The notes under the pieces: generated by a model
Told to the model about the DNA's origin: nothing
The model's database searches: none
Seen by the model: the letters and a program-made list of their open reading frames with translations, nothing else
Shown here: positions 14,752 through 44,948 of the stretch, piece after piece
Position numbering within the stretch: the first letter of the stretch is position 1
How the letters are laid out: the number at the start of each line of letters is the position of its first letter
Translations under genes and position numbers: made by a program
Assembly (NCBI GenBank): GCA_014437165.1
Contig: GCA_014437165.1_4090.3
Length of the DNA: 64,000 bases
Strand: one strand, 5' to 3'
Origin: a phage

Positions 14752-14759
14752 ATTCCCTC

Positions 14760-22201: not shown

Positions 22202-22283
22202 GAGAATAGATTAAAAGTACTATTGCACGGTGATAGTACTTTATAATAGATTTCTTTTATACAACAACGATAGGGGTAACAGC

Positions 22284-25472: not shown

Positions 25473-25719
25473 TACAGAGGGGATCAATTGGTCCCCTTTC
25501 TTTTTTCAGTACTGAATCATTTAATAGACGGATCTATGCACCCAGTGGGTTAGAGACTATCTCGTCTTTATGTAGTAATTATGCCAGTACTGGATGCAGT
25601 TGTCAACAATTATTTTTCAAATACTTTTATATTAAAGTACTTGCTATTAGTTTTTAAACGCGTATAATGTTTTACATCGAAAGGGGAAACGGTTCCCCTG
25701 GTAACTAAGGAATAAGAAA

Positions 25720-27895: not shown

Positions 27896-27925
27896 CAGTA
27901 CTATTGACATAGTTTGATAGTACTG
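27896..27925 (+). promoter_or_regulatory. promoter with operator-like palindrome CAGTACTAT-TGACA..TTG-ATAGTACTG spanning the -35 and spacer
   Basis: near-identical copies at 30405-30434 and 38799-38828. Confidence 0.55.
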
Positions 27926-27975
27926 GCATAATAGATTTTATCAAGACGACACATATTAATTTAAGGAATACTAAA

Positions 27976-28299
27976 ATGGCTAAAACTATCATCAACACCG
28001 TTTCCCTGGCTGCAATCCATGCAATCAATGTTGACGGTAAACGTTGGACTGATTCATATGGCAATACTTATCATTCTTGTCATGTAAGCGTTGAACTGGA
28101 TAACGGCTTGAATGATCTGGCGGTTGAATCATTTACTTATGGCTATGAGGATGCATATCAACAAACGGCGGTATCACTCTTAAAGGAATCAGTAGACGGG
28201 CTTGATACTGTTGAAACCTCCCTCTATCGTTTGTGCAATGATCTTAATATCCCGTTGCATTGTACTGTACAGAATGTTAAACGCAAAAAAGATCTTTAA
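27976..28299 (+). CDS. hypothetical protein; paralog of 34344-34667
   Basis: shared …RWTDxxGNTYHSCxVS…ETFTYGY…VKRKKD. Confidence 0.65.
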   Translation: MAKTIINTVSLAAIHAINVDGKRWTDSYGNTYHSCHVSVELDNGLNDLAVESFTYGYEDAYQQTAVSLLKESVDGLDTVETSLYRLCNDLNIPLHCTVQNVKRKKDL

Positions 28300-28379
28300 T
28301 TAGCTTTACTTTATGCAGATACTTTGATATAGTGTCTGCATAGGAGAAAGAAATTAAATCAACTTAAGAGGATAGTAAA

Positions 28380-28649
28380 ATGAAAAATATCAGTACTTTA
28401 ATCGATGCAGGTACACATGTTCGTCGGTCTATGGTTGCAACCAGTTCTACAAAACAAGTACCAAGCGGTTATCTTGTATTTGTGCACGATGGAAAACTCC
28501 TGGAACGTTCAATCAATTTTGATGTTAAAAACAATTGCCGTTTTATTATCTTTCGCCGTGAACAATATAAAATTGATTTGCCAGCGAAGCCCATTAGCGG
28601 GGCGTACAACGTGCAATCATTGTTTGAGCGTCAACCATACACCTATTGA
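28380..28649 (+). CDS. hypothetical protein (89 aa)
   Basis: SD AAGAGGA. Confidence 0.55.
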   Translation: MKNISTLIDAGTHVRRSMVATSSTKQVPSGYLVFVHDGKLLERSINFDVKNNCRFIIFRREQYKIDLPAKPISGAYNVQSLFERQPYTY

Positions 28650-28700
28650 TCAAATCATCGTCAGTGGTCGATTTAGGCCGCTTATATTGGGGATTATACC

Positions 28701-29069
28701 ATGAACGTTAATCAAGTACTGAATGAGATCGAAAGCATCATTAAACCGATGAAGCGTACTGATGCTATGTTAACACCGGAAGAATGCCGCCTTTATGAGC
28801 GTTACAGCGTCGAACAAGTCCAGGCAATGGCTAGTATCCTTCCGGTTAGTAGTACTGCTAAAGGTGGCCCAGGTTTAACCGTACAGGATAAAATCGATCT
28901 CCTTAAGCTCAATGGCTATGTAGTTGATGTCGATAAAGAAAAAGTAATGGTATATGATAGTAGTATTGAGCAAGACTATTATAACTATTGCATGATTGAA
29001 AATGATCCTATTGATTCTATCATTGAAAATATGGTTAACAAAGCATTAAAAGATTTAGATTTAGTTTGA
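28701..29069 (+). CDS. hypothetical protein (122 aa)
   Basis: ORF with ATG start. Confidence 0.55.
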   Translation: MNVNQVLNEIESIIKPMKRTDAMLTPEECRLYERYSVEQVQAMASILPVSSTAKGGPGLTVQDKIDLLKLNGYVVDVDKEKVMVYDSSIEQDYYNYCMIENDPIDSIIENMVNKALKDLDLV

Positions 29070-29143
29070 CAGTACTGTAAAAAGGCGTATAATGTTTTAC
29101 ATAGAGGGGGGAAATGGTTCTCCCCAATAACAGGAGATACAAA

Positions 29144-29296
29144 ATGAAACAATACAACGCTCGGTTTGATGTTACTATCGGTAACGGCAAAGGTCAATTC
29201 TCTTTCAGTACTCGACGCAGTTATACAGAAAACTTCCTGCGTAATTGTGCACTGACCGCCGCACAAATTAAACATTACTTTCAGGCTAAAAAATGA
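29144..29296 (+). CDS. hypothetical small protein (50 aa)
   Basis: ATG 29144 after SD CAGGAGA. Confidence 0.5.
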   Translation: MKQYNARFDVTIGNGKGQFSFSTRRSYTENFLRNCALTAAQIKHYFQAKK

Positions 29297-29382
29297 AATC
29301 ATTAGCTTATTACAGTTCGGCCCTGGTCGGTGCATTGATCGCGGCGTTGTTAGTAACCTATCTATTCTTTATGGTGATTTAA
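29293..29382 (+). CDS. hydrophobic micro-protein (29 aa, single TM: MKSLAYYSSALVGALIAALLVTYLFFMVI)
   Basis: ATGA overlap with previous stop; below track cutoff. Confidence 0.4.
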   Translation: MKSLAYYSSALVGALIAALLVTYLFFMVI

Positions 29383-29517
29383 ATGAATCCTAACGGTATA
29401 GTTTACAGTACTCCTAAAACTAAAGCAGATAAAGCTAAAGCACGTAAAGCGAAAGTACAGGAATACATCAAGCAAGGCATGACACGAAAGGCCGCAGTAC
29501 TTAAAGCTAAAAAATAA
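29383..29517 (+). CDS. small basic protein (44 aa, Lys/Ala-rich)
   Basis: ATG immediately after previous stop. Confidence 0.4.
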   Translation: MNPNGIVYSTPKTKADKAKARKAKVQEYIKQGMTRKAAVLKAKK

Positions 29518-29742
29518 ATGAAAAAAGTGGTTGACTTCGGTCAGCCATTTTGTTATTATATAATCATTGAGAGATAGCTCACTAGCCCACAGGGTGCAGG
29601 AGTGTATCTATTGTATAATGTTTGAGTACTGAAAACTATTTTAAAGTATTTGATAAAAAGTACTTGCAAACTATCTCAATAAGCGTATAATGTTTTACAT
29701 CGAAAGGGGAAACGGTTTCCCCTAGTAATAAGGAAACGAATC

Positions 29743-30084
29743 ATGACTATCTCAATTGCTCAATCTAACTTTGAAAACGAAATCATCGCCCAGGCACTGC
29801 GTTTAAATGATGGTCGGGCCGAAATCAATTACGGTTTCAATTCAGGCGGTTGTGAAAACTATCAGTACTTTGTAACGGCTGATGGCTGTGTCCTGGGCAT
29901 CAATACAGTTATTGTAAACATTCAGAAAATTAATTTCAATGATCCAGACGATAGCCAGTTTTACATTGTAGGCGTAGACGTGAATTATGAGGATGATTCA
30001 CTAACTGATGATCACACTGGCGAGAAGTTAGAAAGTGCATACGGTGAAGATGATTATCAGTCCGGTCCAGAAGATTTCGAATAA
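29743..30084 (+). CDS. hypothetical acidic protein (113 aa)
   Basis: cassette + SD AAGGAAA. Confidence 0.6.
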   Translation: MTISIAQSNFENEIIAQALRLNDGRAEINYGFNSGGCENYQYFVTADGCVLGINTVIVNIQKINFNDPDDSQFYIVGVDVNYEDDSLTDDHTGEKLESAYGEDDYQSGPEDFE

Positions 30085-30179
30085 TATAAAAAAAATAGTT
30101 TGACAATAGATTATAGTACTGTATAATAAGTTACATGAAGGGGAGAAATGATTCTCCCCACTAACAGAGAGAAAACAAA

Positions 30180-30392
30180 ATGGCTAATATCTGCACTGTA
30201 CTGAAAAATGCAAAACAAGTTTTATTTTCTGATCACGATCATTTAAACAAGGATATTACTGGCGTTCGGAATATCAAAGATGTAAAAAGTGTTATGGGTA
30301 TCTATTGCAATATGAAACGTGTTGGAACGTTCGGCGATAAAGTACTATACCAGGCAGGGGATTACAATTTTACACTGACTATTATTAACTAA
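30180..30392 (+). CDS. hypothetical protein (70 aa)
   Basis: cassette + SD. Confidence 0.55.
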   Translation: MANICTVLKNAKQVLFSDHDHLNKDITGVRNIKDVKSVMGIYCNMKRVGTFGDKVLYQAGDYNFTLTIIN

Positions 30393-30404
30393 AAAATATT
30401 ATCA

Positions 30405-30434
30405 CAGTACTATTGACACTGATTGATAGTACTG
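30405..30434 (+). promoter_or_regulatory. promoter with operator-like palindrome (copy 2)
   Basis: CAGTACTATTGACACTGATTGATAGTACTG then GCATAATA. Confidence 0.55.
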
Positions 30435-30475
30435 GCATAATAACTTTTATCAACTACACTACTAAGGAATTAAAA

Positions 30476-30655
30476 ATGGCTATCATCGCAAAAACTGAAA
30501 TCATCGGCCTGGATTCTATCATCATGTCGTTTGAAGATCAAAAAGGTATGTATGTAGTTTCCTATGGTGATTATGTTCGGGAGTATGAAACGGTAGACGA
30601 AGCCTTTGAAAGTTACATTCGCCAGGTGAATAAAGCATACGACGATTACCGCTAA
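30476..30655 (+). CDS. hypothetical protein (59 aa)
   Basis: ATG 30476 after SD AAGGAA. Confidence 0.5.
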   Translation: MAIIAKTEIIGLDSIIMSFEDQKGMYVVSYGDYVREYETVDEAFESYIRQVNKAYDDYR

Positions 30656-30754
30656 AATATATTACCAGTACTATTAAAGATATTGACAACGTTTGATAGT
30701 ACTGTATAATAAGTTTTATAAACAGTAGTTAACTTAACCTAAGAGAGAAACAAA

Positions 30755-30898
30755 ATGATCGCACTGGATTCATTCATCGACGCAGTACTGGCAAAAACTG
30801 GCGAGGATCTTACAGCAGAACAATACGCAATGATCGAGCAATGCCAGCAAGACGGTAAATCGGTGAAAGATACTGTTAAGATTATCCGCAAGATGTAA
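30755..30898 (+). CDS. hypothetical small protein (47 aa)
   Basis: SD AGAGAGAAA; followed by terminator 30905-30933. Confidence 0.45.
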   Translation: MIALDSFIDAVLAKTGEDLTAEQYAMIEQCQQDGKSVKDTVKIIRKM

Positions 30899-30904
30899 GA
30901 TTAT

Positions 30905-30933
30905 AGCCCACTGGTTAACGCTGGTGGGCTTTA
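30905..30933 (+). terminator. hairpin AGCCCACTGG..CTGGTGGGCT + TTTAATT
   Basis: stem-loop after stop. Confidence 0.5.
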
Positions 30934-31003
30934 ATTCATTACCCTATACAATGCCAGTACTAAACCGTTTATCTCGTTAGAATGCGTTACAGGACGTTTA
31001 ACA

Positions 31004-31201
31004 ATGATTAGCATGAAATCAGTACAAAAACAAATAGAAACATTATCAAAAATTAAACGTAAACAGTACTCCTTAGAATATACAATCAATGGTAACTATC
31101 ATCTAATGAAAGAGAATAATTTTATAGTCATTGATGAATCATTGCAAATCATTAGTATAGTACTGAAAGCATTAATCAATGACAGAAAAAAATTAAAATA
31201 A
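31004..31201 (+). CDS. hypothetical protein (65 aa)
   Basis: ORF with ATG start. Confidence 0.45.
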   Translation: MISMKSVQKQIETLSKIKRKQYSLEYTINGNYHLMKENNFIVIDESLQIISIVLKALINDRKKLK

Positions 31202-31532
31202 ACTATTGACAATATCATCAAGTACTGGCATAATACTTACATCAAGACGAGAACGTCACTAACCCATAGGGTGCACAAATGTAACTGTATAATATTGATC
31301 AAAAAATGATCTGATCAATACTTGATCAATTTGCGTAAAGTAGTATAATTCTATGCAGTTGGTTAGACGAAAGGTTATGATTAGTAGTGCAAGTGTATAA
31401 AAATTTTCATGGTGTATCGTTTCGCACATATGGGGATGAATATGTGGTATCATGTGGATTGGAAAAAGTAAGAACAAGTAATATTATTGTCGCATTACAG
31501 TACTATAGTATTTTTATAATGAGGTTAAAATA

Positions 31533-31790
31533 ATGGCTGTAGGATTCGCGAAAGATGGGGCCGAACAAGACGAGATTAACGCAGTGATTCAGGCCGCCGT
31601 TAACCACGCTAGAAAGCAAATTAACGCACAAATAGAATCACTGATACATTGCCTCGACTGCGGCGATATAATCCCTGAGAATCGACGCCAGGCCGTTAAG
31701 GGATGTAAGTACTGCATAACTTGCCAGGAGGATCATGATAGTACTTTTAAACGTCCCCCGCGTAATTGTTGGCATAGATCTATGAGATAA
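31533..31790 (+). CDS. DksA/TraR-family C4 zinc-finger protein
   Basis: C-x2-C-G-x2-I-P-x2-R-R-x-A…C-x2-C-Q pattern (CLDCGDIIPENRRQAVKGCKYCITCQ). Confidence 0.7.
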   Translation: MAVGFAKDGAEQDEINAVIQAAVNHARKQINAQIESLIHCLDCGDIIPENRRQAVKGCKYCITCQEDHDSTFKRPPRNCWHRSMR

Positions 31791-31853
31791 AAAGTATTGA
31801 CAGTACTGAAAGATAGTGTATAATATTTTATATCTTAACTGAGGATTGAAATC

Positions 31854-32210
31854 ATGGGAATACAACATATCACGCGTACTACTGACAATGGCGAGATCAC
31901 TGGCTATCAAGTACAGGGCAAAGTAGCACAATTGCAGTACTGGTTTGTTAAACGTGGAATCATTGCACCGGATCTTGATTATGACCGTGTAGCGTTTATT
32001 GATTCTCTTTATGTTGATCCTGATAGTCGGGGCAATGGTGAAGGTAACGAATTAATGAATGCCTTTATTGATGCCGCCGATGATTCAGATTGTATCATTT
32101 TAGAATGCGATACGGGAGAAGATAACGCCTTTAATCTTAAAGAATGGTACGAAGGTTTCGGATTCGAGGTACTGATCGATAGTGAATATCCTATCATGAT
32201 TTTATCATAG
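31854..32210 (+). CDS. probable small GNAT-fold acetyltransferase-like protein
   Basis: motif-A-like V.P..RG.G.G..L segment (YVDPDSRGNGEGNELMNAF). Confidence 0.45.
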   Translation: MGIQHITRTTDNGEITGYQVQGKVAQLQYWFVKRGIIAPDLDYDRVAFIDSLYVDPDSRGNGEGNELMNAFIDAADDSDCIILECDTGEDNAFNLKEWYEGFGFEVLIDSEYPIMILS

Positions 32211-32288
32211 TACTTGCATTTAGTTTTCAGTACTGTTATAGTACTTACATCAAGGGGAAACATCTTCCCCTACTAAGAGGAAATAAAA

Positions 32289-32477
32289 ATGGAAAACTTA
32301 TCAAGTATTTTAGTACAAGATGATTTCGGTAATCCTGGAAGTGCTATCATTGTTCGGGGTAATAAAGCAACGTTTGTTATTGCTGGTGGACCTGTACAGC
32401 GTAGCATTAAAAATAATGCTGTTACCATTAATAATGTACGCTATCGCTTAGATAAAGAATTGATTCATAAACTTTAA
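32289..32477 (+). CDS. hypothetical protein (62 aa)
   Basis: cassette + SD GAGGAAA. Confidence 0.55.
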   Translation: MENLSSILVQDDFGNPGSAIIVRGNKATFVIAGGPVQRSIKNNAVTINNVRYRLDKELIHKL

Positions 32478-32561
32478 AAAGTATTTGACAATAGATTATA
32501 GTACTGTATAATAAGTTACATGAAGGGGAGAAATGATTCTCCCCACTAAGAGGAAAGAAAA

Positions 32562-32774
32562 ATGCAAGGTCAACTAATCGTTCGTAAATGGTCTGATACT
32601 AACGAAAAACCGTGGGATGTACAATACATCGGACCGGATGGGGTATCACGTTATCAGCCTGGCGTAACGCATAGTACTGAGCAATTTGCCAACGCTCACC
32701 GCGAACGCCTGTTAGAATCCATGAAACAGGGATTCTGTGAAAAATTCATTCAAGATCATTGGCTGAAAGATTAA
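32562..32774 (+). CDS. hypothetical protein (70 aa)
   Basis: cassette + SD. Confidence 0.55.
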   Translation: MQGQLIVRKWSDTNEKPWDVQYIGPDGVSRYQPGVTHSTEQFANAHRERLLESMKQGFCEKFIQDHWLKD

Positions 32775-32791
32775 TATAAGGAGTACAGCTT

Positions 32792-32884
32792 ATGCAAATG
32801 AATCCGATGATTATTGTTTTAGCTGTACTTATGATCATTCATGCAATAGTAGAAGTATTAACGCAATCAGGAGTAATAAAATGA
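32792..32884 (+). CDS. hydrophobic micro-protein (30 aa, single TM)
   Basis: SD AAGGAG; MQMNPMIIVLAVLMIIHAIVEVL…. Confidence 0.4.
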   Translation: MQMNPMIIVLAVLMIIHAIVEVLTQSGVIK

Positions 32885-33054
32885 TCCAAGTAGAATTATC
32901 AGTACTGAAAGATCTGTTTTATCGGTTAGGTACTAATGGCGAGTATCCTAAAAGTGATACCGCAAAACTTTTTGTATCACTCGACTTATGGCAACGCGAA
33001 CAATTAGTAATGTCCTGGCGTAAAGGTAAAGAAGATAGCGAGGTGAAAGCATGA
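32881..33054 (+). CDS. hypothetical small protein (57 aa)
   Basis: ATGA coupling. Confidence 0.4.
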   Translation: MIQVELSVLKDLFYRLGTNGEYPKSDTAKLFVSLDLWQREQLVMSWRKGKEDSEVKA

Positions 33055-33200
33055 AAGAATTCTTATTCGAAGTAGTGTTTCAAGGTGTCGGTAGCAACCA
33101 ACTGATTCGCTCAAGTGGTTACAATGTTAACCAGGCATGGAATAACATTAAACAAATGTACCCGAACGCTATCACCTATCGCAACCCGAAACAAGTTTAA
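33051..33200 (+). CDS. hypothetical small protein (49 aa)
   Basis: ATGA coupling; followed by terminator/repeat element. Confidence 0.4.
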   Translation: MKEFLFEVVFQGVGSNQLIRSSGYNVNQAWNNIKQMYPNAITYRNPKQV

Positions 33201-33514
33201 AAATAATTGAAAAAGGGATTGACTCCGGTCAGTCCCTTTGCTATTATATACGCATAGAAACAAATCAGCCCACAGGGTGCATAAATGTATCTATTGTTTG
33301 CTGGTGGCTAGTACTGAAAACTATTTTTAAAAAGTACTTGCATTGTACTTAGAATCAAGTATAATATTTTACATCAGGACGGGGAACGAAACAAGTAACC
33401 CCGTTAAGTAGTCCAGGAGTAAGACATAAGAAAACCTCCCCTGATAAAATAGTTTGACAATAGAAAGTAAACGAGTATAATACTTACATCAACCACTGAT
33501 AAGGAAACATTAAA

Positions 33515-33790
33515 ATGCGGATTCTACTGACAGCTAACGAAATCGAACAAGTACTGACTACTAACCTGGAAGACTGGAAACGTGAAGCAGATATCCAGGC
33601 GGTTCAATGGCTTAACGATAAGTTAACGCCGGATGACTTAAGCAAGATTGTAGATCCTCAATTCTACGAAGATATTCACGACACCGCGTTAAGCGTCGAG
33701 GATGTACTTGATAAGCACTACATTGATATTGATTTGCAGGTTTACGGTCGTAAAAACTTTATCACTATTCACGACATTTACAATAATTAA
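33515..33790 (+). CDS. hypothetical acidic protein (91 aa)
   Basis: preceded by structured leader repeat 33371-33490. Confidence 0.6.
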   Translation: MRILLTANEIEQVLTTNLEDWKREADIQAVQWLNDKLTPDDLSKIVDPQFYEDIHDTALSVEDVLDKHYIDIDLQVYGRKNFITIHDIYNN

Positions 33791-33851
33791 GTATTGACAA
33801 AGTATCTTAGTACTGTATAATAGTTTACATCTTAATTAAAAAGGAAACATC

Positions 33852-33986
33852 ATGAAAGCGAACAAAGCAGCAAAGAAACAAACCAATCCCCTGGCTGGCT
33901 GGAAGTTAGATTTATCCGATGAAGTAGTTTGCACAAATAAGAATGTAGTTGAAGCTGAAAAGAAATTACGAAAAGAAAACAAATAA
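33852..33986 (+). CDS. hypothetical small basic protein (44 aa)
   Basis: promoter + SD AAGGAAA. Confidence 0.4.
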   Translation: MKANKAAKKQTNPLAGWKLDLSDEVVCTNKNVVEAEKKLRKENK

Positions 33987-34071
33987 GTATTGACAAAGTA
34001 TCTTAGTACTGTATAATAGTTTACATCAAGGGGGGAATGGTTCCCCTCCTAACAAAGAGAGAGAAATAAAA

Positions 34072-34254
34072 ATGGCTAAGTGCACTATCTGCAAGAAAGA
34101 AATAGTATTAGTTCCAAGTGCCCGTGAACGTGCCGCTCGGTTCGGTGGCAAAGCGTCAGACTATACAAAAATGTTTACTACCCATGCAGCTTGCCAGGTA
34201 GCAAAACGTTCACAAGAAAGCGTAGAATTAATGCGTAAACTTTCCAAAAAATAA
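34072..34254 (+). CDS. hypothetical protein (60 aa)
   Basis: cassette + SD. Confidence 0.5.
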   Translation: MAKCTICKKEIVLVPSARERAARFGGKASDYTKMFTTHAACQVAKRSQESVELMRKLSKK

Positions 34255-34343
34255 GTATTGACAAAGTATCTTAGTACTGTATAATAGTTTACATCAAGCG
34301 AGGGGAATGGTTCCCCTCCTAACTAAAAGAGAGAGAAATAAAA

Positions 34344-34667
34344 ATGGCTATGATCCTTACCCAGAAAGTAGAACTGAAAATTGTAACCTCCTTTGACATT
34401 AAAGTTAATCGCTGGACTGATCGGAACGGTAACACTTACCACTCTTGCTACGTGTCCGCGTTAATTGGCGACCGCTGGGAAGACTTGGGACATGAAACCT
34501 TTACTTACGGTTACGGTACACAAGGAGAATACACGGGCTTGGAGATCATTAAAGAAACCGTTATAGGTTTCAACCCGAAAGAAAAAGTTATTCACCGCAT
34601 CGAAAAAGAGATTAACAAAGAAATAACAGTTCGCTACTACGATGTAAAACGTAAGAAAGACATGTAA
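34344..34667 (+). CDS. hypothetical protein; paralog of 27976-28299
   Basis: shared motifs. Confidence 0.65.
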   Translation: MAMILTQKVELKIVTSFDIKVNRWTDRNGNTYHSCYVSALIGDRWEDLGHETFTYGYGTQGEYTGLEIIKETVIGFNPKEKVIHRIEKEINKEITVRYYDVKRKKDM

Positions 34668-34762
34668 TAGAATCCATTTAAAGTACTATTTGACATTGCC
34701 CAGATAGTACTTTATAATAGACTCTAACTTGTAGTACTAACTCAACTAATAGGATGTATACC

Positions 34763-35158
34763 ATGATTACTAAATTCTACGCTACCCGTGAAGCTGCCCG
34801 TATTGTTGCACGCGAGGAAGGAGCAGCATTTAAAGACATGGGCAAAGATGCACCGAAAGGTCAACGCTGGGCCGTACAGTTCAAAGAAATCTCTGATATC
34901 GTGAATTCACCGGAGCCAGTACTAACAGCAGCAGAACTAAAACGAGCGGATTTACTGGCGGCAGTACTTAACGCACAAGATGAATTTATCGCTGATTCTG
35001 ATATCAAAGTACAGACAAACCATACCGCTTGGACTCACGCGGATCACCTGGCAAACCTTAAGCGTCCAAGTGAACTGGTTCGCAACCAGAAAGAGATCCG
35101 ACACGACCGTAAGGGTAATCGTGTAACAGTATACAGTAAACGCCGCCAGGTTATCTAA
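34763..35158 (+). CDS. hypothetical protein; paralog of 22284-22550
   Basis: F.TRE.ARI.AR..GA.FKDMG…HDRKGNRVTVYS shared. Confidence 0.6.
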   Translation: MITKFYATREAARIVAREEGAAFKDMGKDAPKGQRWAVQFKEISDIVNSPEPVLTAAELKRADLLAAVLNAQDEFIADSDIKVQTNHTAWTHADHLANLKRPSELVRNQKEIRHDRKGNRVTVYSKRRQVI

Positions 35159-35180
35159 TAACTTGCAGTACTAACAACAC

Positions 35181-35205
35181 GGCGGGATCAGTTCCCGCCT
35201 TTTTT
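35181..35205 (+). terminator. intrinsic terminator GGCGGGATCAGTTCCCGCC + TTTTTT
   Basis: hairpin + T-run. Confidence 0.7.
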
Positions 35206-35220
35206 ATAGGATAAACTAAA

Positions 35221-35475
35221 ATGATTAAGGTACAACTATCTAAAGATAATATCTTGCGGGTACACTATAAAGCACCACAGAGAATCATCACAAAGGCCGT
35301 ACAGCTTGCTAATGAGTTTATTAATGGTAACCTATTACCAAGGAAGTTAAGCAACGGAAAACTGCGTGTAATCGATGTAGACACTAACAACAGAATAGTA
35401 ATTGAGAACACAGGAAAGATAAACCTATATGAACACCAACAATATAATAAGAAAATAAAACTAATATCACGTTGA
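35221..35475 (+). CDS. hypothetical protein (84 aa)
   Basis: SD AGGATAAA. Confidence 0.55.
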   Translation: MIKVQLSKDNILRVHYKAPQRIITKAVQLANEFINGNLLPRKLSNGKLRVIDVDTNNRIVIENTGKINLYEHQQYNKKIKLISR

Positions 35476-35528
35476 CAGTACTCAATTGTTTTAGTATTAT
35501 GTACACATACCAACACGGGAGAAACAAA

Positions 35529-35747
35529 ATGAAATTATCTAAAATCGAAAAGAAAACTATTGATGAAGCAGTTAAGCACGGTTATACCTTTCGTAATGAT
35601 TCACATTTTACCAATTTTCAACAAGGCCAAAGGACTATTAAAAAACTAATTGACAAAGGTTTATTAGTTAAAGTAGATAACGGTAACGGCATTGAGTATC
35701 AGCCAACCCAAGACGCATTATCTTTAAAGAAATATGCAATTATCTAA
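35529..35747 (+). CDS. hypothetical protein; paralog of 35805-36047
   Basis: identical promoter/leader sequence; ATG after GGGAGAAA. Confidence 0.55.
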   Translation: MKLSKIEKKTIDEAVKHGYTFRNDSHFTNFQQGQRTIKKLIDKGLLVKVDNGNGIEYQPTQDALSLKKYAII

Positions 35748-35804
35748 TTGACAGTACTCAAATGTTTTAGTACTATATGTACATACCAACACGGGGAAAA
35801 CAAA

Positions 35805-36047
35805 ATGATTACTTTAGAAAAACGTATCAAAGAAACTACATCGCTGGTGGAACTGTTAACAGTACTGAAATGCCGTACTACTCGGTTTAGTACACCGGAC
35901 TTTATTAATATGGTTGATGTTAACGGTCGTTATCGCATTGCAGTAGAACAAGGAACAGCGAAAGTATTCAGTACTAAAAACACTAAGGAAGTGATTCACG
36001 CTGTAAGTGTTAAAAAAGTAGTTGCCATTGATAGTAAAGTACTGTAA
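35805..36047 (+). CDS. hypothetical protein; paralog of 35529-35747
   Basis: duplicated promoter TTGACAGTACTCAAtTGTTTTAGTA-TAT…. Confidence 0.55.
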   Translation: MITLEKRIKETTSLVELLTVLKCRTTRFSTPDFINMVDVNGRYRIAVEQGTAKVFSTKNTKEVIHAVSVKKVVAIDSKVL

Positions 36048-36078
36048 GATAGTTTCATTAACTCAAGGAGAACATGCA

Positions 36079-36663
36079 ATGCGTAATTATACTAAATTCA
36101 TCCGTACCCTGTCAGAAATGGAAACCAACAAAGAGATCCTTTCAGCTTGTCGGTTAGCTGGTCTGGAGATCATCGGTGCGGGTTCTTCCCGTATTGTATT
36201 CGCTTTAAATGATCGGTTAGTGATCAAGGTCGCGAATTGTGATGCGGGTGTAGAACAAAATGAAACTGAATGTAAGGTATGGAATTTTTTAGATTATGAC
36301 CGCCCTCAATTGAAACAGTACTTTGCAAAGGTGCATATGCATTTATGCGATCCTGATAATATGTTTATCGTTATGGATCGGTTGAGTACTGCAAGTAAAG
36401 GCAGTGTAAAGCACGTAAACGCGTGCAATGAATTAAAGTACAATATTAAACGTAATGCCATTGAACGCCAGCACCGCTTTGCTGATGCACTACAACACGT
36501 TGATGATACATTATCAACACTAACGATAAGAGATATCAGAAAACAGAATATCGGCCAGGATCGTAATGGCCTTATTAAAGTACTTGATTACGGTTTAACC
36601 CGCAATATCTGGAATCAGTACTATAAAAAGCGTGATGTAGAAGCAAGTAAGGTAACACGATAA
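36079..36663 (+). CDS. minimal protein-kinase-like protein
   Basis: G-loop IGAGSSRIVF, LVIKVA lysine, catalytic-loop-like IRDIRKQNIG, DFG-like KVLDYG; SD AAGGAGA. Confidence 0.6.
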   Translation: MRNYTKFIRTLSEMETNKEILSACRLAGLEIIGAGSSRIVFALNDRLVIKVANCDAGVEQNETECKVWNFLDYDRPQLKQYFAKVHMHLCDPDNMFIVMDRLSTASKGSVKHVNACNELKYNIKRNAIERQHRFADALQHVDDTLSTLTIRDIRKQNIGQDRNGLIKVLDYGLTRNIWNQYYKKRDVEASKVTR

Positions 36664-36884
36664 AAAAGATTAAAAAAGGGATTGACTCCGGTCAGTCCCT
36701 TTGCTATTATATATTCATTGAGAGATAACTCACTGACCCATAGGGTGCGGAAGTGTATCTATTATATAAGTATTCAGTACTGAAAACTATTTGATAAAAA
36801 GTACTTGCATTGTACTTAGAATCAAGTATAATGTTTTACATAGAGAGGGGGAAATGGTTCTCCCTGGTAATAAGGAATAAAATC

Positions 36885-37106
36885 ATGACTACAATGACTT
36901 GCATTTACGCTTCCAATCTTCTGAATGATGCGGCCTTTAATGTTGATTCAGAATATCAATGTTATCGGGATGAAAATAAAAAAGTTTTTGTAGTTGATAA
37001 TAATGGTTTCCATATTGAATTACAATCCGGTTTCACTGGTGTTGATGGTAAATCAGTGTGGGGCGTACAGGATGATAAAGGCACATATCATTTTAAACGT
37101 AATTAA
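36885..37106 (+). CDS. hypothetical protein (73 aa)
   Basis: ATG 36885 after SD AAGGAA. Confidence 0.55.
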   Translation: MTTMTCIYASNLLNDAAFNVDSEYQCYRDENKKVFVVDNNGFHIELQSGFTGVDGKSVWGVQDDKGTYHFKRN

Positions 37107-37189
37107 GTATTGACAAAGTATATCAGTACTGTATAATAGTTTACATCAAGGGGAGAATAGTTCTCCCCAATACAATAAGGAATAAAATC

Positions 37190-37597
37190 ATGTCTACTAC
37201 TACTAATCTCGCTCGGAACATCACTAACGATAAAAATCATGCTGCAATGGTTGTAGCTTACATTGAAGCTATGCAATTCAGTACTGTACATAATGATAAC
37301 GGCGATTACCTGGAAGATTATGAGTTATCTGATGAAGCACGTCAAGCGGCGGTGATTGCATGTTCTCGCTTCATTGAGAAACACGGTAATGATCTGGAAG
37401 TAGTTCGCGGTATGTTTATTGATTACGGTTATGAGCAAGCTGGTCATGATCTGTTCCTTACCCGCGAAGGTCACGGAACTGGTTTTTGGGATCGTGGTTT
37501 AGGTCACTATGGCGATGTATTCACGAAGTACTGCGAAGAAATCAACGTTTGCGATCCCTATGTAGGCGATGATAATCTAATCTATATGGGCGAATAA
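37190..37597 (+). CDS. hypothetical protein (135 aa)
   Basis: cassette + SD. Confidence 0.6.
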   Translation: MSTTTNLARNITNDKNHAAMVVAYIEAMQFSTVHNDNGDYLEDYELSDEARQAAVIACSRFIEKHGNDLEVVRGMFIDYGYEQAGHDLFLTREGHGTGFWDRGLGHYGDVFTKYCEEINVCDPYVGDDNLIYMGE

Positions 37598-37684
37598 AAG
37601 TATTTGACAAAGTATATCAGTACTGTATAATAGTTTACATCAAGGGGAGAATAGTTCTCCCCGATACTAAAAGGAAACAAAATT

Positions 37685-37957
37685 ATGTCTAGTTACTCCG
37701 CTACTATGATCATTAAAGATATGAACGGTAATCCTACTTCTGCTGGTGGATCATTTGGAAACATTAATTTAGATGGTCGGTTATCCATGCAATCAGCCAT
37801 CGATGCAGCGAAAGAAGTTTTTAAGAATGAATGTACTGTTAGTAAGCTGGATTATATGGGATTCGCTATCGAGAAAACTAATCGTTTTGTGAACTACAAA
37901 AATCCACTGATGATTGATACTAACCTGAAAGCTAACGAAGTGGGGTACTTATTATGA
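37685..37957 (+). CDS. hypothetical protein (90 aa)
   Basis: cassette + SD. Confidence 0.6.
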   Translation: MSSYSATMIIKDMNGNPTSAGGSFGNINLDGRLSMQSAIDAAKEVFKNECTVSKLDYMGFAIEKTNRFVNYKNPLMIDTNLKANEVGYLL

Positions 37958-38145
37958 CAGTAGAAGAAGTTAAAAAAGTACTGGCAGTACTACGCTATCA
38001 TAATCATTGCAAGGTGAAGAATGATCCTGATTATGTTGATTCATCCCTGGAGGAAGACACATTAAACGCAATAAGCCATATGCAAACATTAGCAAAGCGT
38101 ATGACCGAAAAGAATAGACCGGACTATATCGGAAATAAAATTTAA
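37954..38145 (+). CDS. hypothetical protein (63 aa)
   Basis: ATGA coupling. Confidence 0.5.
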   Translation: MTVEEVKKVLAVLRYHNHCKVKNDPDYVDSSLEEDTLNAISHMQTLAKRMTEKNRPDYIGNKI

Positions 38146-38231
38146 AAAGTACTTGCATTGTAGTTAGATTAACGTATAATGTTTTACATAGAGCGGGGGA
38201 ATAGTTCTCCCGCCAGTCCAGGAGATACACC

Positions 38232-38495
38232 ATGAACACTATCGAAATCACTATCAATGCACACGTATACGACAACGTAGTACTGCAAACTACTATGACC
38301 GCTAATGATACCAGTACTTTGCGGAATACCGTTGTAAGTGCTGTATGTGCTGCAATCGGTGATGTAGCCCTGGAAAATGCAGAACACATCAACAACGGTT
38401 TCACTATGTGCAAACGTGATAACGCAAAACATATCATCTTAGAAGGTTACGGCGGTGTAGAATATAACCTTTATATGAAAAAAGTACTTGCATAA
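38232..38495 (+). CDS. hypothetical protein (87 aa)
   Basis: cassette + SD CAGGAGA. Confidence 0.55.
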   Translation: MNTIEITINAHVYDNVVLQTTMTANDTSTLRNTVVSAVCAAIGDVALENAEHINNGFTMCKRDNAKHIILEGYGGVEYNLYMKKVLA

Positions 38496-38562
38496 TAACT
38501 AAAACAAAGTATAATGTTTTGCATAGGGGGAGATATCCTCCCCCACTAAAAGGAGTAATAAA

Positions 38563-38787
38563 ATGGCTAACTTTGATGAACTAATGCGGGAAGTAGCTAA
38601 CCTGGCAGAAGAGAAGAAATCATTCGATTCTATCTATAACACCGCTCATCGTGATTCAGTACTGGCATGTACTCAGGATCAAAAAGATGAACTGATCGCC
38701 ACCTACCATGAAGCGTGGCAGTACTACCGCCAATGGGAGAAAGAAGAAAGTGAGTCTACCATTGACGGCCTCAATAATCTAATCTAA
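38563..38787 (+). CDS. hypothetical acidic protein (74 aa)
   Basis: cassette + SD AAGGAG. Confidence 0.6.
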   Translation: MANFDELMREVANLAEEKKSFDSIYNTAHRDSVLACTQDQKDELIATYHEAWQYYRQWEKEESESTIDGLNNLI

Positions 38788-38798
38788 AAGTTTTATTT

Positions 38799-38828
38799 CA
38801 GTACTATTGACATAGCTTGATAGTACTG
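38799..38828 (+). promoter_or_regulatory. promoter with operator-like palindrome (copy 3)
   Basis: CAGTACTATTGACATAGCTTGATAGTACTG. Confidence 0.55.
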
Positions 38829-38863
38829 ATGTAATAACTTTACTAACTACAAGGGGAAACATA

Positions 38864-39121
38864 ATGGAACAGTTCACACAATATCGGGTAAATCCTCAAG
38901 CTATGGCCTACGTAGAAGACCATAAAACGTTACCAGTACTAACACCAATTAAAGGCCATATCTATCGTGCAATGTCATGGAATACGGCCCAGGATGGATA
39001 TACTACCGCTGGCGTGGGTATGTATTGCGGGAATGGTGAATGGTTTGATCCAAATAATCCGGTAGCCATTGACAGTACTGAAAAAATGAAATGGGCCGAC
39101 TACATCGAAGATATTTCATAA
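38864..39121 (+). CDS. hypothetical protein (85 aa)
   Basis: SD AAGGGGAAA. Confidence 0.55.
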   Translation: MEQFTQYRVNPQAMAYVEDHKTLPVLTPIKGHIYRAMSWNTAQDGYTTAGVGMYCGNGEWFDPNNPVAIDSTEKMKWADYIEDIS

Positions 39122-39411: not shown

Positions 39412-39657
39412 CAAAAAAGAATAAAAAAAGGAGTTGACTTCGGTCCGCTCCTTTAGTACTATATACGCATAGACAAAAACTAGCCCACAGGGTGCATAGG
39501 TGTATCTAAAATATATAGTTAATAACGGTGAGTAACTATCTGCTGGTGGAACTAAAACTATTAATAAAAAAAGTATTGACAAAGTATATCAGTACTGCGA
39601 TAATGTATCTCGTAGGGCGGCAATGGTGCGACGGCCCACAAAGTTAGGAGATTCAAA

Positions 39658-40759: not shown

Positions 40760-40788
40760 TGCGTAAAGGGATCTAGTACTGATTCAGA

Positions 40789-40953
40789 AAAAAGTCAAGG
40801 CGTTTTTAAAATTATGCGTTAAAAAAATGCATAGGTAATCCCTTGACTTTTTTGAAATAAAAGGGATTGGACTATGGCAAAATGCGTAGGGGGCTAAAGG
40901 GCGGGTAACCTTAGCGACTTCGAAAAAAGGAGTGATAGGGGCTTGACTTTTTA
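40789..40953. repeat. boundary element: 12-bp inverted repeat AAAAAGTCAAGG / CCTTGACTTTTT plus third CTTGACTTTTT copy
   Basis: read directly in gene-free 280-bp segment. Confidence 0.5.
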
Positions 40954-41042
40954 TATAATTCTGATAATATATAGTCTATATTATATTTCATTCATATTTT
41001 ATATGTTAGTTACATTAACTCAACATTAGAGGTCACAGAACT

Positions 41043-41408
41043 ATGAATCCATCATCTAATAAATGTGGTACTTCCTTTAATGTAGAATGGTTATTTTTTA
41101 AACCCACATCTACTATAAAATCATTCATTGCTGATATCACTGAAGCACCTGACACCCTTGTATCAGTTGTTAACAACAATAACGAAATGGTATTTTCTAT
41201 TGATGAAAATCAATATGCAGATATCTATTCATTGAGTCGTATAAAAAACTTAGTTGTACTGTCCGAGAAAGCGTTCGCAAAAGAAGCGAAGAAATGGGAT
41301 TTTAAACTTCCTATTGAATTGGTACGTGAAATACAAAAATTGGGATGTACTACTATTGAGAATTGTAAAGACTCACGTGCTACTGGGAATATTTCATTTG
41401 AAGTATAA
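41043..41408 (+). CDS. hypothetical protein (121 aa)
   Basis: SD AGAGG. Confidence 0.55.
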   Translation: MNPSSNKCGTSFNVEWLFFKPTSTIKSFIADITEAPDTLVSVVNNNNEMVFSIDENQYADIYSLSRIKNLVVLSEKAFAKEAKKWDFKLPIELVREIQKLGCTTIENCKDSRATGNISFEV

Positions 41409-41431
41409 TGCATTTATATGAACAAAACATC

Positions 41432-41460
41432 TTGACATCATGCCTCACATGGGGTATGAT
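41432..41460 (+). promoter_or_regulatory. sigma70-type promoter TTGACA-17-TATGAT heading the family B array
   Basis: hexamers at 41432-41437 and 41455-41460. Confidence 0.55.
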
Positions 41461-41494
41461 GTTTTTTCACATATGAACCTATGGATTTTATCCT

Positions 41495-41692
41495 ATGCGT
41501 ATTTTAACTAAAGAACAGCACCACGAAAGACTTATCAATAACATGGCTATGATAATGTATAAGTCCCATGACCGTGGTATTGCCTATAAGCGTGAATTAA
41601 TTATGGCACTATTCATTGGAACTAACTTTCAGGAAAGGTATGTCAACGATTGGATTTGGTATTTAATTGAAGATATAACGAGTAAACTATGA
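41495..41692 (+). CDS. family B small protein (LGTNYQ core)
   Basis: …FIGTNFQERYVNDWIWYLIEDITSKL. Confidence 0.65.
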   Translation: MRILTKEQHHERLINNMAMIMYKSHDRGIAYKRELIMALFIGTNFQERYVNDWIWYLIEDITSKL

Positions 41693-41889
41693 AAAAGCGT
41701 ATTTTAAATAAAGAAGAATATCAATCACTGTTACGTAAAAACTTCACAAAGATTTATAATACAGACACACACGTAGAACGAATGGAGTTATACATTTTGA
41801 TTACATTGGGAACAAACTATCAGGGTAGATGGGTGTGGCAATATATGGACTCCTTAAAAAATGAAATATTGTCCAAGAGGAAACAATGA
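41689..41889 (+). CDS. family B small protein
   Basis: ATGA overlap; …LGTNYQGRWV…LKNEILSKR. Confidence 0.65.
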   Translation: MKKRILNKEEYQSLLRKNFTKIYNTDTHVERMELYILITLGTNYQGRWVWQYMDSLKNEILSKRKQ

Positions 41890-42095
41890 AAACTATAACA
41901 CGAACCCAATCATACGGTCTTATCTTGAAATACATGGACTTAATGGTGGATATCAGCAAAGACCTTCCTAAAACTGAAATTGAAGTTGCAAGAGCAGAGA
42001 TCCGCATGTTGGCTGTACTGAACACAAACCATCAGGAAGATTATGTTGAAGAATGGATTCGATTTTTAATAGAAGATATAAAGAGTAAACTATGA
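41886..42095 (+). CDS. family B small protein
   Basis: ATGA overlap; …NTNHQEDYVEEWIRFLIEDIKSKL. Confidence 0.65.
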   Translation: MKTITRTQSYGLILKYMDLMVDISKDLPKTEIEVARAEIRMLAVLNTNHQEDYVEEWIRFLIEDIKSKL

Positions 42096-42307
42096 TTATT
42101 ATAGAAAACTCATATCAATATACTGAACGCATCGCTGCCAGACAACTTGAAATCCTCATAATATACGAAGAGACTTCTGATTTAAACTTAGCCGAGGTAT
42201 TGGAAAATGATATACTATTGGGTGCATTCTTAGGAACAGACTATCAGAAGTATTATGAGGAAAAGTATTTGTCATCTCTTGAGAAATATATCAGGAGCAA
42301 ATTATGA
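42092..42307 (+). CDS. family B small protein
   Basis: coupled; LGTDYQKYY. Confidence 0.65.
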   Translation: MIIIENSYQYTERIAARQLEILIIYEETSDLNLAEVLENDILLGAFLGTDYQKYYEEKYLSSLEKYIRSKL

Positions 42308-42516
42308 TTTTTTTAACACCAGAAGAATATAAGAAACGTTTCAATTCCGCACAGGGTGAAATCTTACTTATATACCTTTCAAATGCAGACCTTAACTTAT
42401 CAAGGGTATTAGAAAAAGATTTACTTATGGGTGCATTCCTTGATACAGACTTTCAGGTGTATTATGTAGGGGAATACTTAATTGCACTTCAGAATTATAT
42501 CAGGAGTAAACTATGA
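42304..42516 (+). CDS. family B small protein
   Basis: coupled; near-duplicate of previous. Confidence 0.65.
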   Translation: MIFLTPEEYKKRFNSAQGEILLIYLSNADLNLSRVLEKDLLMGAFLDTDFQVYYVGEYLIALQNYIRSKL

Positions 42517-42740
42517 AACATTTAAGTAACTCCGAGAAGAATAAAATTATCATAGCTGCAATAAACAAATATTTTACACTTCCTCACAAAGAAGGTTTAT
42601 GTGTAAGGGAACACAGGATAAACACCACCGATAAACGCATGATGGCTGTACTGGGGACGAACTTCCAGGAAGAGTATGTTATTGCACACATAGTTGCACT
42701 CAAGAATTACATTATGGACAAATGTAATGAACATCATTAA
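42513..42740 (+). CDS. family B small protein
   Basis: LGTNFQEEYV…HIVALKNYIMDKC. Confidence 0.65.
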   Translation: MKHLSNSEKNKIIIAAINKYFTLPHKEGLCVREHRINTTDKRMMAVLGTNFQEEYVIAHIVALKNYIMDKCNEHH

Positions 42741-42951
42741 TAACTTTGAATACGAGGCCCGTGCTAAGAGTGCCAGAAAAAAAGAGAACACCATTTACTT
42801 CACTATGATGTACTTACAATGGACTGAAATTGAAGAAAAGGTTGCTGAAGTATGGATGTTGGAATTCATGGGGACGCAGTATCAGAATAGGTTTGCGGGT
42901 GAGTATATCAATGTTCTTATGAAACAAATAGAAAGAAAGGAAAAGAACTAA
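42727..42951 (+). CDS. family B small protein
   Basis: ATG 42727 (Met12 of track ORF); MGTQYQNRF. Confidence 0.6.
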   Translation: MNIINNFEYEARAKSARKKENTIYFTMMYLQWTEIEEKVAEVWMLEFMGTQYQNRFAGEYINVLMKQIERKEKN

Positions 42952-43109
42952 TGGTTTTCATTAACATATCTGACCAACTCGATACTAAACTAGAAGTCGA
43001 GCAGAGTGAGGGATGGATGCTGTACTTTCTTGGAACTTCTCATCAAAATTTTTATATCCATGAACACATAGTTGCACTCAAGAATTACATTATGGACAAA
43101 TGCAAATGA
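42951..43109 (+). CDS. family B small protein (52 aa; below track cutoff)
   Basis: TAATG junction; …LGTSHQNFYIHEHIVALKNYIMDKCK. Confidence 0.5.
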   Translation: MVFINISDQLDTKLEVEQSEGWMLYFLGTSHQNFYIHEHIVALKNYIMDKCK

Positions 43110-43363
43110 AATACTTAACACAAGATGAATATTCACTTAGAATTCGAAAGCTCACCCCAGAAGCAAGAGTAATCTACGATGACCCCACCCTTACATGGAA
43201 CCAAATGCGAGCTAAAGTTAATGAGCTATGGTTGCTGTACTTTATGGGGACTCAATATCAAGATAAGTTTTGCAAAGAATTTGTCGATCAATTAATGAAT
43301 GTTATACAGGATAAACTAGATGAATATTGGCTCGCAAAACATGAAGACTTTATCAGGAGTTGA
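43100..43363 (+). CDS. family B small protein
   Basis: MGTQYQDKF. Confidence 0.65.
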   Translation: MQMKYLTQDEYSLRIRKLTPEARVIYDDPTLTWNQMRAKVNELWLLYFMGTQYQDKFCKEFVDQLMNVIQDKLDEYWLAKHEDFIRS

Positions 43364-44678: not shown

Positions 44679-44679
44679 C

Positions 44680-44919: not shown

Positions 44920-44948
44920 TATTGAAAATAAATGTAAGGGTAATTAAC

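Follow-up and report, generated by a model that had tools for sequence, protein, structure and literature searches.

A Palindromic Hexamer Recurrent in the Early Promoters and Genes of an Apparent Asteriusvirus-Type Jumbo Coliphage

1. Introduction

A phage promoter overlapped by an inverted repeat raises an immediate question: is the repeat an operator read by a protein on the DNA, a stem-loop formed in the RNA, or a by-product of the way in which the promoter was copied? We consider this question for three sites, here called dyads 1, 2 and 3, in a 64,000-nucleotide stretch of phage DNA (contig GCA_014437165.1_4090.3 of assembly GCA_014437165.1; hereafter the window). Judged by its sequence, the window comes from an Asteriusvirus-type jumbo coliphage of the 121Q/PBECO4/phAPEC6 group; it is 91-99% identical to Asteriusvirus jumbo coliphages (121Q, PBECO4, phAPEC6, JP4 and others), and similarity to close relatives is strongly mosaic in its 20-41 kb part. 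More than 80% of the genes in these 350-kb phages are of unknown function, and their regulation is essentially unstudied. The early region of the window contains about 60 small genes, almost every one of which has a near-consensus sigma70-type promoter.

An initial annotation had read the repeat as the operator of a dimeric repressor governing a separate regulon of three genes. The evidence assembled here leads elsewhere: the hexamer AGTACT, one copy of which lies in each arm of the repeat, is itself a selected DNA-level signal across these genomes, and the three sites are tentatively seen as the two-site extreme of a global network. Whatever the function, a single word of 6-8 bp turns a vague operator-like palindrome into a concrete, testable handle.

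2. The Dyads and Their Relatives

The repeat is real and does overlap the core promoter. The 30-bp pattern CAGTACTAT-TGACA-N4-TTG-ATAGTACTG (equivalently CAGTACTATTGACA-N4-TTGATAGTACTG) occurs exactly at all three sites on the + strand (Table 1), with no further match at up to three mismatches in the window and none in 100 dinucleotide-preserving shuffles. Its centre had been written as N7, which makes a pattern of 33 bp although the sites span 30 bp; the actual centre is N4 before TTG, and reads TAGT, CTGA and TAGC in dyads 1, 2 and 3, respectively. The 9-bp arms, CAGTACTAT and ATAGTACTG, bracket the -35 hexamer TTGACA and most of the 17-bp spacer, the right arm stopping 1 bp short of the -10, and each site lies directly 3′ of the stop codon of the upstream gene.

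The sequence beyond the arms is shared by only two of the sites. Dyads 1 and 2 are followed by GCATAATA, giving TGG-CATAAT as an extended -10 and thus a promoter of the form TTGACA-N17-CATAAT with a TG extension. Dyad 3 is followed by ATGTAATA; the hexamer TGTAAT, the best -10 that it offers at a spacing of 17 bp, is without the conserved A of position 2 (the 121Q sequence is TGTGAT), so that the activity of dyad 3 as a promoter is doubtful. The genes downstream of the three dyads are ORFans, unrelated to one another.

Nor do the three sites make up a complete set. The same 9-bp arms are found at three more places in the window, with their words 31, 19 and 24 bp apart, and a further dyad has arms of 11 bp (Table 1). 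The looser variants that had been noted at about 22895 and 31203 do contain the right-hand word in the spacer (AGTACTGG in both), but they have no left arm.

More copies of the dyad promoter were sought in the INPHARED phage collection, a scan of IMG/VR having returned only 121Q. This distant search extended the class beyond Asteriusvirus to Klebsiella phage Muenster (2 copies) and Erwinia phage Hallingskeid (8 copies within 5 kb), so that 18 distinct copies from three phage genera are now available. In all of these the two words are 22 bp apart and the block CAGTACTATTGA-N7-TGATAGTACTG never changes; the loop, the -10 and the tract upstream all differ between copies. The phAPEC6, 121Q and PBECO4 orthologues likewise keep both arms, with variation in the central bases, in one -35 and in several -10 hexamers; neither the -10 hexamer nor the loop is as constrained as the arms. 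Several extra flanking bases (C16, A23, T24, T35-T38 and G45) are invariant within the dyad class, whereas the flanks of AGTACT in general are variable.

3. AGTACT as a Selected Word

By z-score, AGTACT is the most over-represented hexamer of the window, with 265 copies against 19.5 +/- 4.3 in dinucleotide-preserving shuffles, or about 13-fold. Its density is 4.1 per kb overall, 8.3 per kb in intergenic sequence (n = 91) and 3.3 per kb in coding sequence (n = 174). The motif search of the window thus returned the three exact sites together with an arm word that is not specific to promoters, and an operator sequence restricted to regulated promoters is not what is seen. The word has symmetric flank preferences, C at -1 and G at +1, T at -3 and A at +3, which extend it to the 12-bp palindrome TnCAGTACTGnA.

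The copies within genes are particularly informative. They occur in all three reading frames (49/33/48 in + strand genes), and the codon statistics around them are skewed: Ser-Thr is encoded as AGT-ACT in 71 of 146 cases, where 19 would be expected; Val-Leu is written GTA-CTN 82 times against 34 expected, with the preceding codon ending in A in 64 of the 82 (background 31%); and the TAC:TAT ratio for Tyr is 37:11 in an AG_T context compared with 259:496 elsewhere. The word is therefore made in genes by synonymous codon choice which, together with its occurrence in every frame, rules out an origin in a protein motif. In alignments with 121Q, PBECO4 and phAPEC6, divergence inside and outside the word is 2.8% and 7.4%, 1.4% and 3.2%, and 0.7% and 3.0%, respectively, meaning that AGTACT evolves 2.3-4.5 times more slowly than its surroundings. 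It is clear from these data that AGTACT itself is a DNA-level signal under strong selection across these genomes.

Two other origins were considered and rejected. Biased repair of the very-short-patch type predicts depletion of the deamination products AGTATT/AATACT, yet these are 1.5-fold enriched, and a regular, nucleosome-like spacing is ruled out by gaps between words that are near Poisson (coefficient of variation (CV) 0.8-1.0).

The word is also found in hairpins of terminator-like anatomy. At 3191-3212 and 9897-9915, intergenic hairpins have stems made of two AGTACT words (TCCAGTACT-TAAT-AGTACTGGA and GCCAGTACT-G-AGTACTGGC, respectively), the second being followed on the - strand by TTTTCTTTT.

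4. The Word inside Promoters

AGTACT lies within the promoter proper in about 35 of 43 early promoters (~80%), and it does so at stereotyped offsets, counted from the first base of the -10 to the first base of the word. Offsets of -7 (13 promoters) and -8 (7 promoters) place it at about -19 to -14 or -20 to -15; an offset of -27 is seen in 9 promoters and in 7 more of the TTGCAT/TTGCAC type, where the last T of the word is the first T of the -35; the others are -17/-18 (5 promoters) and -30 (3 promoters, the dyad class). These positions also hold in single-word promoters without a hairpin. Across aligned promoter spacers, none of 192 AGTACT positions has a substitution; the rate is 3-10% elsewhere in the spacer and 0-2% in the -35 and -10, which shows the spacer copies to be at least as constrained as the core hexamers. 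Since some 20 promoters without a second arm share its offset, the right arm of the dyad is a generic constrained spacer element, and within the dyad class only the left arm is special. Promoters with paired words have spacings of 11, 16, 19, 20, 22, 24, 31 and 40 bp.

5. Phylogenetic Spread and AGTACT-Free Islands

Over-representation of the word is conserved across at least four genera. In 12 kb, where 4 copies would be expected, RaK2, GAP32 and CBB have 27-28, and 8 kb of early region contain 70 copies in Muenster (2.7 expected) and 62 in Hallingskeid (2.5 expected). In PA5oct and Atu_ph07, which are more distantly related, the count is 0-1 per 10 kb, T4-type coliphage RB49 has none in the 14 kb examined, and a 50-kb sample of E. 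coli K-12 has 3 against 11.6 expected (0.06 per kb), a contrast of about 70-fold with the phage. By this pattern of enrichment and absence, AGTACT belongs to the enterobacterial RaK2-like lineage; it characterises neither the host nor coliphages generally. A host-driven promoter element common to coliphages was likewise rejected, because RB49 has promoters of the promoter-early stem-loop (PeSL) type, which are mobile promoter/stem-loop cassettes, and yet lacks the word in those 14 kb. No mention of AGTACT or of CAGTACTG as a motif was found in the accessible literature on 121Q, PBECO4, phAPEC6, Sharanji, RaK2 and CBB.

Two islands of the window are free of AGTACT, and both are also free of it in phAPEC6, 121Q and PBECO4. 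Island B (48884-56589) instead contains AGTACA 41 times (2.7 expected), always on the + strand; these copies are spread over 13 genes and all three frames and have the consensus CAGTACAG; AGTTCA/CAGTTCAG is enriched there too. These AGTACA sites are conserved no better than background and thus look like relics. Island A (40781-46438) is a tandem array of about 20 paralogous genes encoding 65-90 amino acids, with few internal promoters; it has 12-13 copies of TGTACT (1.3 expected), which are opposite in orientation to the sites of island B, occupy three frames and partly fall in a conserved [M/L]-Y motif. That TGTACT and AGTACA are sequencing artefacts, miscalled at a modified motif, is contradicted by the same readings in the independently sequenced phAPEC6, 121Q and PBECO4.

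6. Predicted Stem-Loops

The dyads are also predicted to fold as RNA, into stems of 11-13 bp across the -35 with energies of -14 to -16 kcal/mol and z-scores of -3.4 to -4.7 (-14.2 kcal/mol and z -3.7 for dyad 1). The stems include two G.U pairs, formed by the TTGA of the -35 with a conserved TGAT, and an outer helix of 4 bp is predicted between an upstream UUAU and the AUAA of the -10. They are AU-rich and have no U tract directly 3′, so they would be poor intrinsic terminators.

Leader structure divides the promoters in a complementary manner. In the window, all five dyad promoters have an unstructured leader (-0.1 to -2.1 kcal/mol); of the 49 other promoter-like sites, 33 have a hairpin in the leader at -9 kcal/mol or below, and most cassettes of the window carry in their leader a G-run/C-run hairpin like the classical RB49 type. 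An unstructured leader likewise accompanies the dyad promoter in Hallingskeid (8 of 8) and Muenster (2 of 2).

No covariation was found at the 16 predicted pairs among the 18 distinct copies from three genera: eleven pairs never vary, the twelfth (A27-U34) is broken in 6 of the 18, and at the invariant G36 and T35 the better-pairing A and C are never seen. Invariant arms without covariation point to a sequence-specific constraint that is not purely structural. Rfam at gathering thresholds and ARAGORN returned no known RNA family or tRNA from the window.

7. Competing Explanations

The reading that we favour, with a probability of roughly 0.4, is that each arm is a complete site for a two-fold-symmetric reader of AGTACT and that a global network, of which the three promoters are the two-site extreme, takes the place of a private regulon. 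The three sites are members of a conserved early sigma70-type promoter class of RaK2-like enterobacterial jumbo phages, with two AGTACT words built into the promoter, one just upstream of the -35 (about -42 to -37) and the other at the 3′ end of the spacer (-20 to -15), where it supplies the TG of the extended -10. The word, with its palindromic extended consensus, would be the binding site of a lineage-specific factor of two-fold symmetry. At these two positions such a factor would compete with the sigma70 holoenzyme, the 22-bp distance between the words, about two helical turns, would allow cooperative binding, and the network of words would provide global control of early promoters, most simply their shut-off. 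Promoters would then form a continuum that includes most of the early region, with the three dyads at its two-site end. The stem-loop that is predicted across the -35 in read-through transcripts, as in PeSL cassettes, may be a second function.

The earlier idea of a dimeric reader is thus retained in part. The 12-bp palindrome of the extended consensus makes a two-fold-symmetric DNA-binding protein a reasonable inference, but a reading of the arms as half-sites of one dimer is not supported: each is a full palindrome, the two centres being 22 bp apart. A separate three-gene regulon is not supported either, in view of the presence of AGTACT in about 80% of early promoters, in 174 coding copies and in terminator stems, together with the unrelated genes downstream and the defective -10 of dyad 3.

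Several points weigh against the network of complete sites. At one copy per 240 bp, two thirds of them coding, AGTACT far exceeds what transcription control needs, and its primary function may be unrelated to promoters. The spacings of paired words vary from 11 to 40 bp, which leaves no single cooperative geometry. Where the inner flanks of the arms differ from the generic consensus (AT/AT, then T.G and G.T), the changes on the two sides complement each other, just as pairing in a hairpin would require, and the dyad promoters are exactly those without the leader stem-loop that neighbouring cassettes have. A Pfam search of the 135 open reading frames (ORFs) of the window, which represents only part of a genome of about 350 kb, detected no DNA-binding domain, and consequently no candidate repressor is visible there; its matches were limited to RCC1-like repeats, a DksA/TraR zinc finger, a ParE-like toxin, a GNAT acetyltransferase and domains of unknown function (DUFs). 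The gene for the reader could lie in the other ~290 kb. Occupancy of the sites might either repress or activate.

A broader proposition, which we regard as about an even bet, is that AGTACT, extended to TnCAGTACTGnA, serves the enterobacterial RaK2-like jumbo phages as a lineage-specific "self word", read by a not-yet-described factor and addressing the phage's own DNA globally. The word occurs about 4 times per kb, and 7-9 times per kb in early regions, and selection would maintain it in synonymous codons, spacers, leaders and terminator stems alike. Possible uses would be early-promoter control, counter-silencing, protection, modification or genome organisation, and the dyads would be the point at which the word meets RNA polymerase.

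Among the alternatives, the most serious, though we consider it somewhat unlikely, is a composite cassette of the PeSL type, in which the dyad acts as an RNA stem-loop that attenuates, terminates, processes or stabilises upstream RNA, transcription starts again from the sigma70 promoter embedded in it, and AGTACT merely offers ready-made self-complementary arms. T4-type phages provide the precedent, combining strong sigma70 promoters with stem-loops that in some cases overlap the -35 or -10 (PMC2839356; PMC4122927). The predicted fold energies and the placement of the sites immediately 3′ of an upstream stop codon agree with this view, as does the complementary distribution of dyads and leader hairpins, which may nevertheless simply reflect two cassette lineages by descent. 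Other pairs of AGTACT have different complementary extensions, GAAT/ATTC (40 bp), GAC/GTC (26 bp) and, in the terminators, TCC/GGA and GCC/GGC, and GC-rich hairpins surround a -35 nearby (29524, 33212 and 36675). What a stem-loop does not account for is the absence of covariation, the failure of G36 and T35 ever to change to the better-pairing base, and the AU-rich composition without a direct U tract; nor can it explain why the right arm has the same offset as the single, non-hairpin word of some 20 promoters.

It is improbable, more so than the stem-loop cassette, that the dyad has no function as such. The promoters would in that case be paralogous copies of one ancestral cassette, and AGTACT would be kept genome-wide for a non-transcriptional purpose, e.g., self-marking for replication, packaging, protection or modification, with words piling up where spacers and flanks tolerate them. 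The copies do resemble one another outside the arms as well, in the A/T-rich tract upstream and in the initial transcribed region, and the word is dense everywhere, near-Poisson in its spacing, some 70-fold denser than in the E. coli sample and present in terminator stems and coding sequence. Against this, words are not scattered at random in spacers but sit only at the -10-proximal end (-7/-8, 20 promoters), and C16, A23, T24, T35-T38 and G45 are invariant in the dyad class even though generic flanks vary.

Least probable is the model of the initial annotation, a dedicated dimeric or tetrameric repressor that reads the whole 30-bp operator as 9-bp half-sites 21-22 bp apart and gives a few genes distinct kinetics: the strictly invariant extended arms, the word distance fixed in 18 of 18 distinct copies and the class-specific architecture (17-bp spacer, TGG-CATAAT, unstructured leader) would suit it, but each arm is a copy of a self-palindromic word of which the window has 265, the same arms also stand 19, 24 and 31 bp apart, Pfam showed no repressor-like gene in the window's 135 ORFs, the genes that follow the dyads are ORFans unrelated to one another, dyad 3 has no good -10, and eight such promoters within 5 kb of Hallingskeid make a major promoter class and not a small regulon.

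8. Other Features of the Window

The left edge of the early region has features of its own. Records of vB_Ec-M-J, fEgEco12 and CRJP21 begin, with annotated direct terminal repeats, at the equivalent of position ~20000 of the window; divergent promoters on both strands occupy ~20000-20900, and GC skew changes sign near 20 kb. Among about 100 early ORFs (20-64 kb), the only recognisable domains are a ParE-like toxin, a DksA/TraR C4 zinc finger (~31533-31790) and a GNAT acetyltransferase (~31854-32210), and according to the annotation notes of phAPEC6 several ORFs are common to rV5-, T4- and N4-like coliphages. Outside this region, eight large paralogous proteins with RCC1-like/WD40_RLD repeats (best Pfam E-value 9e-32) are encoded in succession on the - strand at 4346-15962; our guess is that they might be fibre or whisker components.

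A second repeated element is the box CCCAC-N-GGGTGC...TGTATCTA, present in ten conserved copies about 35-60 nt downstream of their own promoters and with no obvious ORF. These elements may be a small-RNA family or a binding box; an Rfam search found no match to them, and no consensus fold was convincing. Hairpins of 12 bp, GC-rich and with a -35 TTGACT inside them, followed by TATTAT, lie at 29524-29559, 33212-33247, 36675-36710 and ~39425-39462; with the -35 in the stem they are terminator/promoter composites, and they drive elements of this kind. Muenster and Hallingskeid have the box as well, 3′ of promoters embedded in hairpins. Two copies in the window, at 22917-23000 (+) and 22972-23055 (-), arise from convergent promoters, and the + transcript would cross the reverse complement of the - element. 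Finally, near-identical cassettes of promoter and leader hairpin (TTGACAatagattatAGTACTgTATAATaagttacatgaaGGGGAGAaatgatTCTCCCC) stand 2.4 kb apart at 30100-30175 and 32485-32560, a type of repeat that could mediate deletion or shuffling in the PeSL manner.

Table 1. Coordinates of the dyads, their relatives and other repeated elements in the window.
Feature	Position	Strand	Description
AGTACT word	1-64000		265 copies; 91 intergenic and 174 coding
Early region	20100-41000		small genes, each with own sigma70-type cassette; AGTACT density 6.7 per kb
Dyad promoter 1	27896-27925	+	AGTACT at 27897-27902 and 27919-27924; -35 TTGACA 27904-27909; then TGG and -10 CATAAT 27927-27932
Gene downstream of dyad 1	27976-28299	+	107 amino acids; PHROG 6246, unknown function; no Pfam match
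Dyad promoter 2	30405-30434	+	AGTACT at 30406-30411 and 30428-30433; -35 TTGACA 30413-30418; -10 CATAAT 30436-30441
Gene downstream of dyad 2	30476-30655	+	59 amino acids; PHROG 9374, unknown function
Dyad 3	38799-38828	+	AGTACT at 38800-38805 and 38822-38827; -35 TTGACA 38807-38812; -10 position 38830-38835 reads TGTAAT
Gene downstream of dyad 3	38864-39121	+	85 amino acids; PHROG 34861, unknown function
Fourth member, left arm displaced	30666-30710	+	same 9-bp arms at 30666-30674 and 30696-30704 (30666-30704); words 31 bp apart; -35 30683-30688; -10 TATAAT 30705-30710
Dyad AAGTACTAT...ATAGTACTT	22215-22247	+	arms 22215-22241; words 19 bp apart; abuts TATAAT 22242-22247
Dyad AAGTACTAT...ATAGTACTT	34681-34718	+	arms 34681-34712, around TTGACA 34690-34695; words 24 bp apart; TATAAT 34713-34718
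Dyad with 11-bp arms	20153-20200		words 40 bp apart
Half variant, spacer word only (AGTACTGG)	22898-22926	+	TTGACT-N17-CATAAT; drives CCCAC-N-GGGTGC element, no obvious protein gene
Half variant, spacer word only (AGTACTGG)	31206-31234	+	TTGACA-N17-CATAAT; drives CCCAC-N-GGGTGC element
CCCAC-N-GGGTGC element	20866-20949	-	
CCCAC-N-GGGTGC element	21081-21164	-	
CCCAC-N-GGGTGC element	22917-23000	+	
CCCAC-N-GGGTGC element	22972-23055	-	
CCCAC-N-GGGTGC element	25501-25584	-	
CCCAC-N-GGGTGC element	29551-29634	+	
CCCAC-N-GGGTGC element	31228-31311	+	
CCCAC-N-GGGTGC element	33234-33317	+	
CCCAC-N-GGGTGC element	36702-36785	+	
CCCAC-N-GGGTGC element	39449-39532	+	

9. Comparison with Known Systems

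The systems closest in function are the PeSLs and the operator/stoperator network of cluster A mycobacteriophages, and the dyads differ from both in defining features. PeSLs of T4-type phages combine strong sigma70 promoters with stem-loops and fall into five subclasses according to the position of the stem-loop, i.e., between the boxes, over the -35 or -10, upstream or downstream (PMC2839356). Their stems contain G-T pairs, a lacZ assay showed terminator activity, and the stem-loop acts as terminator or attenuator (PMC2839356; PMC4122927). The window resembles the cassettes of RB49/phi1, PST and nt-1 in its dense near-consensus sigma70 promoters and its hyperplastic, ORFan-rich early region (PMC2839356, PMC4122927). 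As in those phages, the cassette runs from an A/T-rich tract, 3′ of the stop codon of the preceding gene, to a Shine-Dalgarno sequence and ATG, and the position of the stem-loop relative to the promoter defines subclasses, stems over the -35 included. The differences are equally plain: PeSL stems are G-run/C-run stems of variable sequence in which structure is kept, whereas the arms of the dyads are invariant in sequence and none of their 16 pairs covaries; the dyad stems are AU-rich, built from a lineage-specific word and without a U tract, and any terminator role is here putative.

Stoperators are asymmetric 13-bp sites bound by a monomeric repressor and oriented with transcription, at about 20-35 per genome, mostly intergenic and in temperate phages. 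The dyads share with those of cluster A (L5, Bxb1, TipsytheTRex; PMC9283540) the arrangement of a promoter site that belongs to a genome-wide set with many copies in transcribed regions. AGTACT, by contrast, is palindromic and has no orientation, occurs about once per 240 bp with two thirds of its copies inside genes, and belongs to a lytic phage. The asymmetry of a stoperator is not seen either, the oriented variant AGTACA being limited to one island and conserved no better than background.

Classical operators (TetR/tetO, LexA boxes, lambda CI/Cro) are confined to few regulated promoters, and their two arms are the half-sites of one dimer. The dyads are like them in placing dyad symmetry over the core promoter, where a protein at the spacer site would occlude RNA polymerase, and unlike them in that each arm is a complete palindrome of ubiquitous sequence.

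Chromosome-wide words that are read by a protein or enzyme include the SlmA-binding sites (core GTGAGTACTCAC), Noc sites, Chi and DNA uptake sequences. AGTACT is similarly short, far above chance genome-wide and missing from particular islands; its density is one to two orders of magnitude above that of Chi or uptake sequences, and unlike both it is palindromic. The SlmA site shares the AGTACT core, but as the 12-mer GTnAGnnCTnAC it was rejected as an explanation: none of the 265 words has GTnAGTACTnAC flanks, GTNAGTACTNAC does not occur in the window, and G is the rarest base at position -1 of AGTACT (22 of 265). If there were no reader, the dyads would extend the PeSL concept from T4-type to jumbo phages. 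If there is one, it would constitute a genome-wide sequence-specific system in a lytic phage, for which the nearest precedent is the mycobacteriophage stoperators, with another symmetry, another density and another lifestyle.

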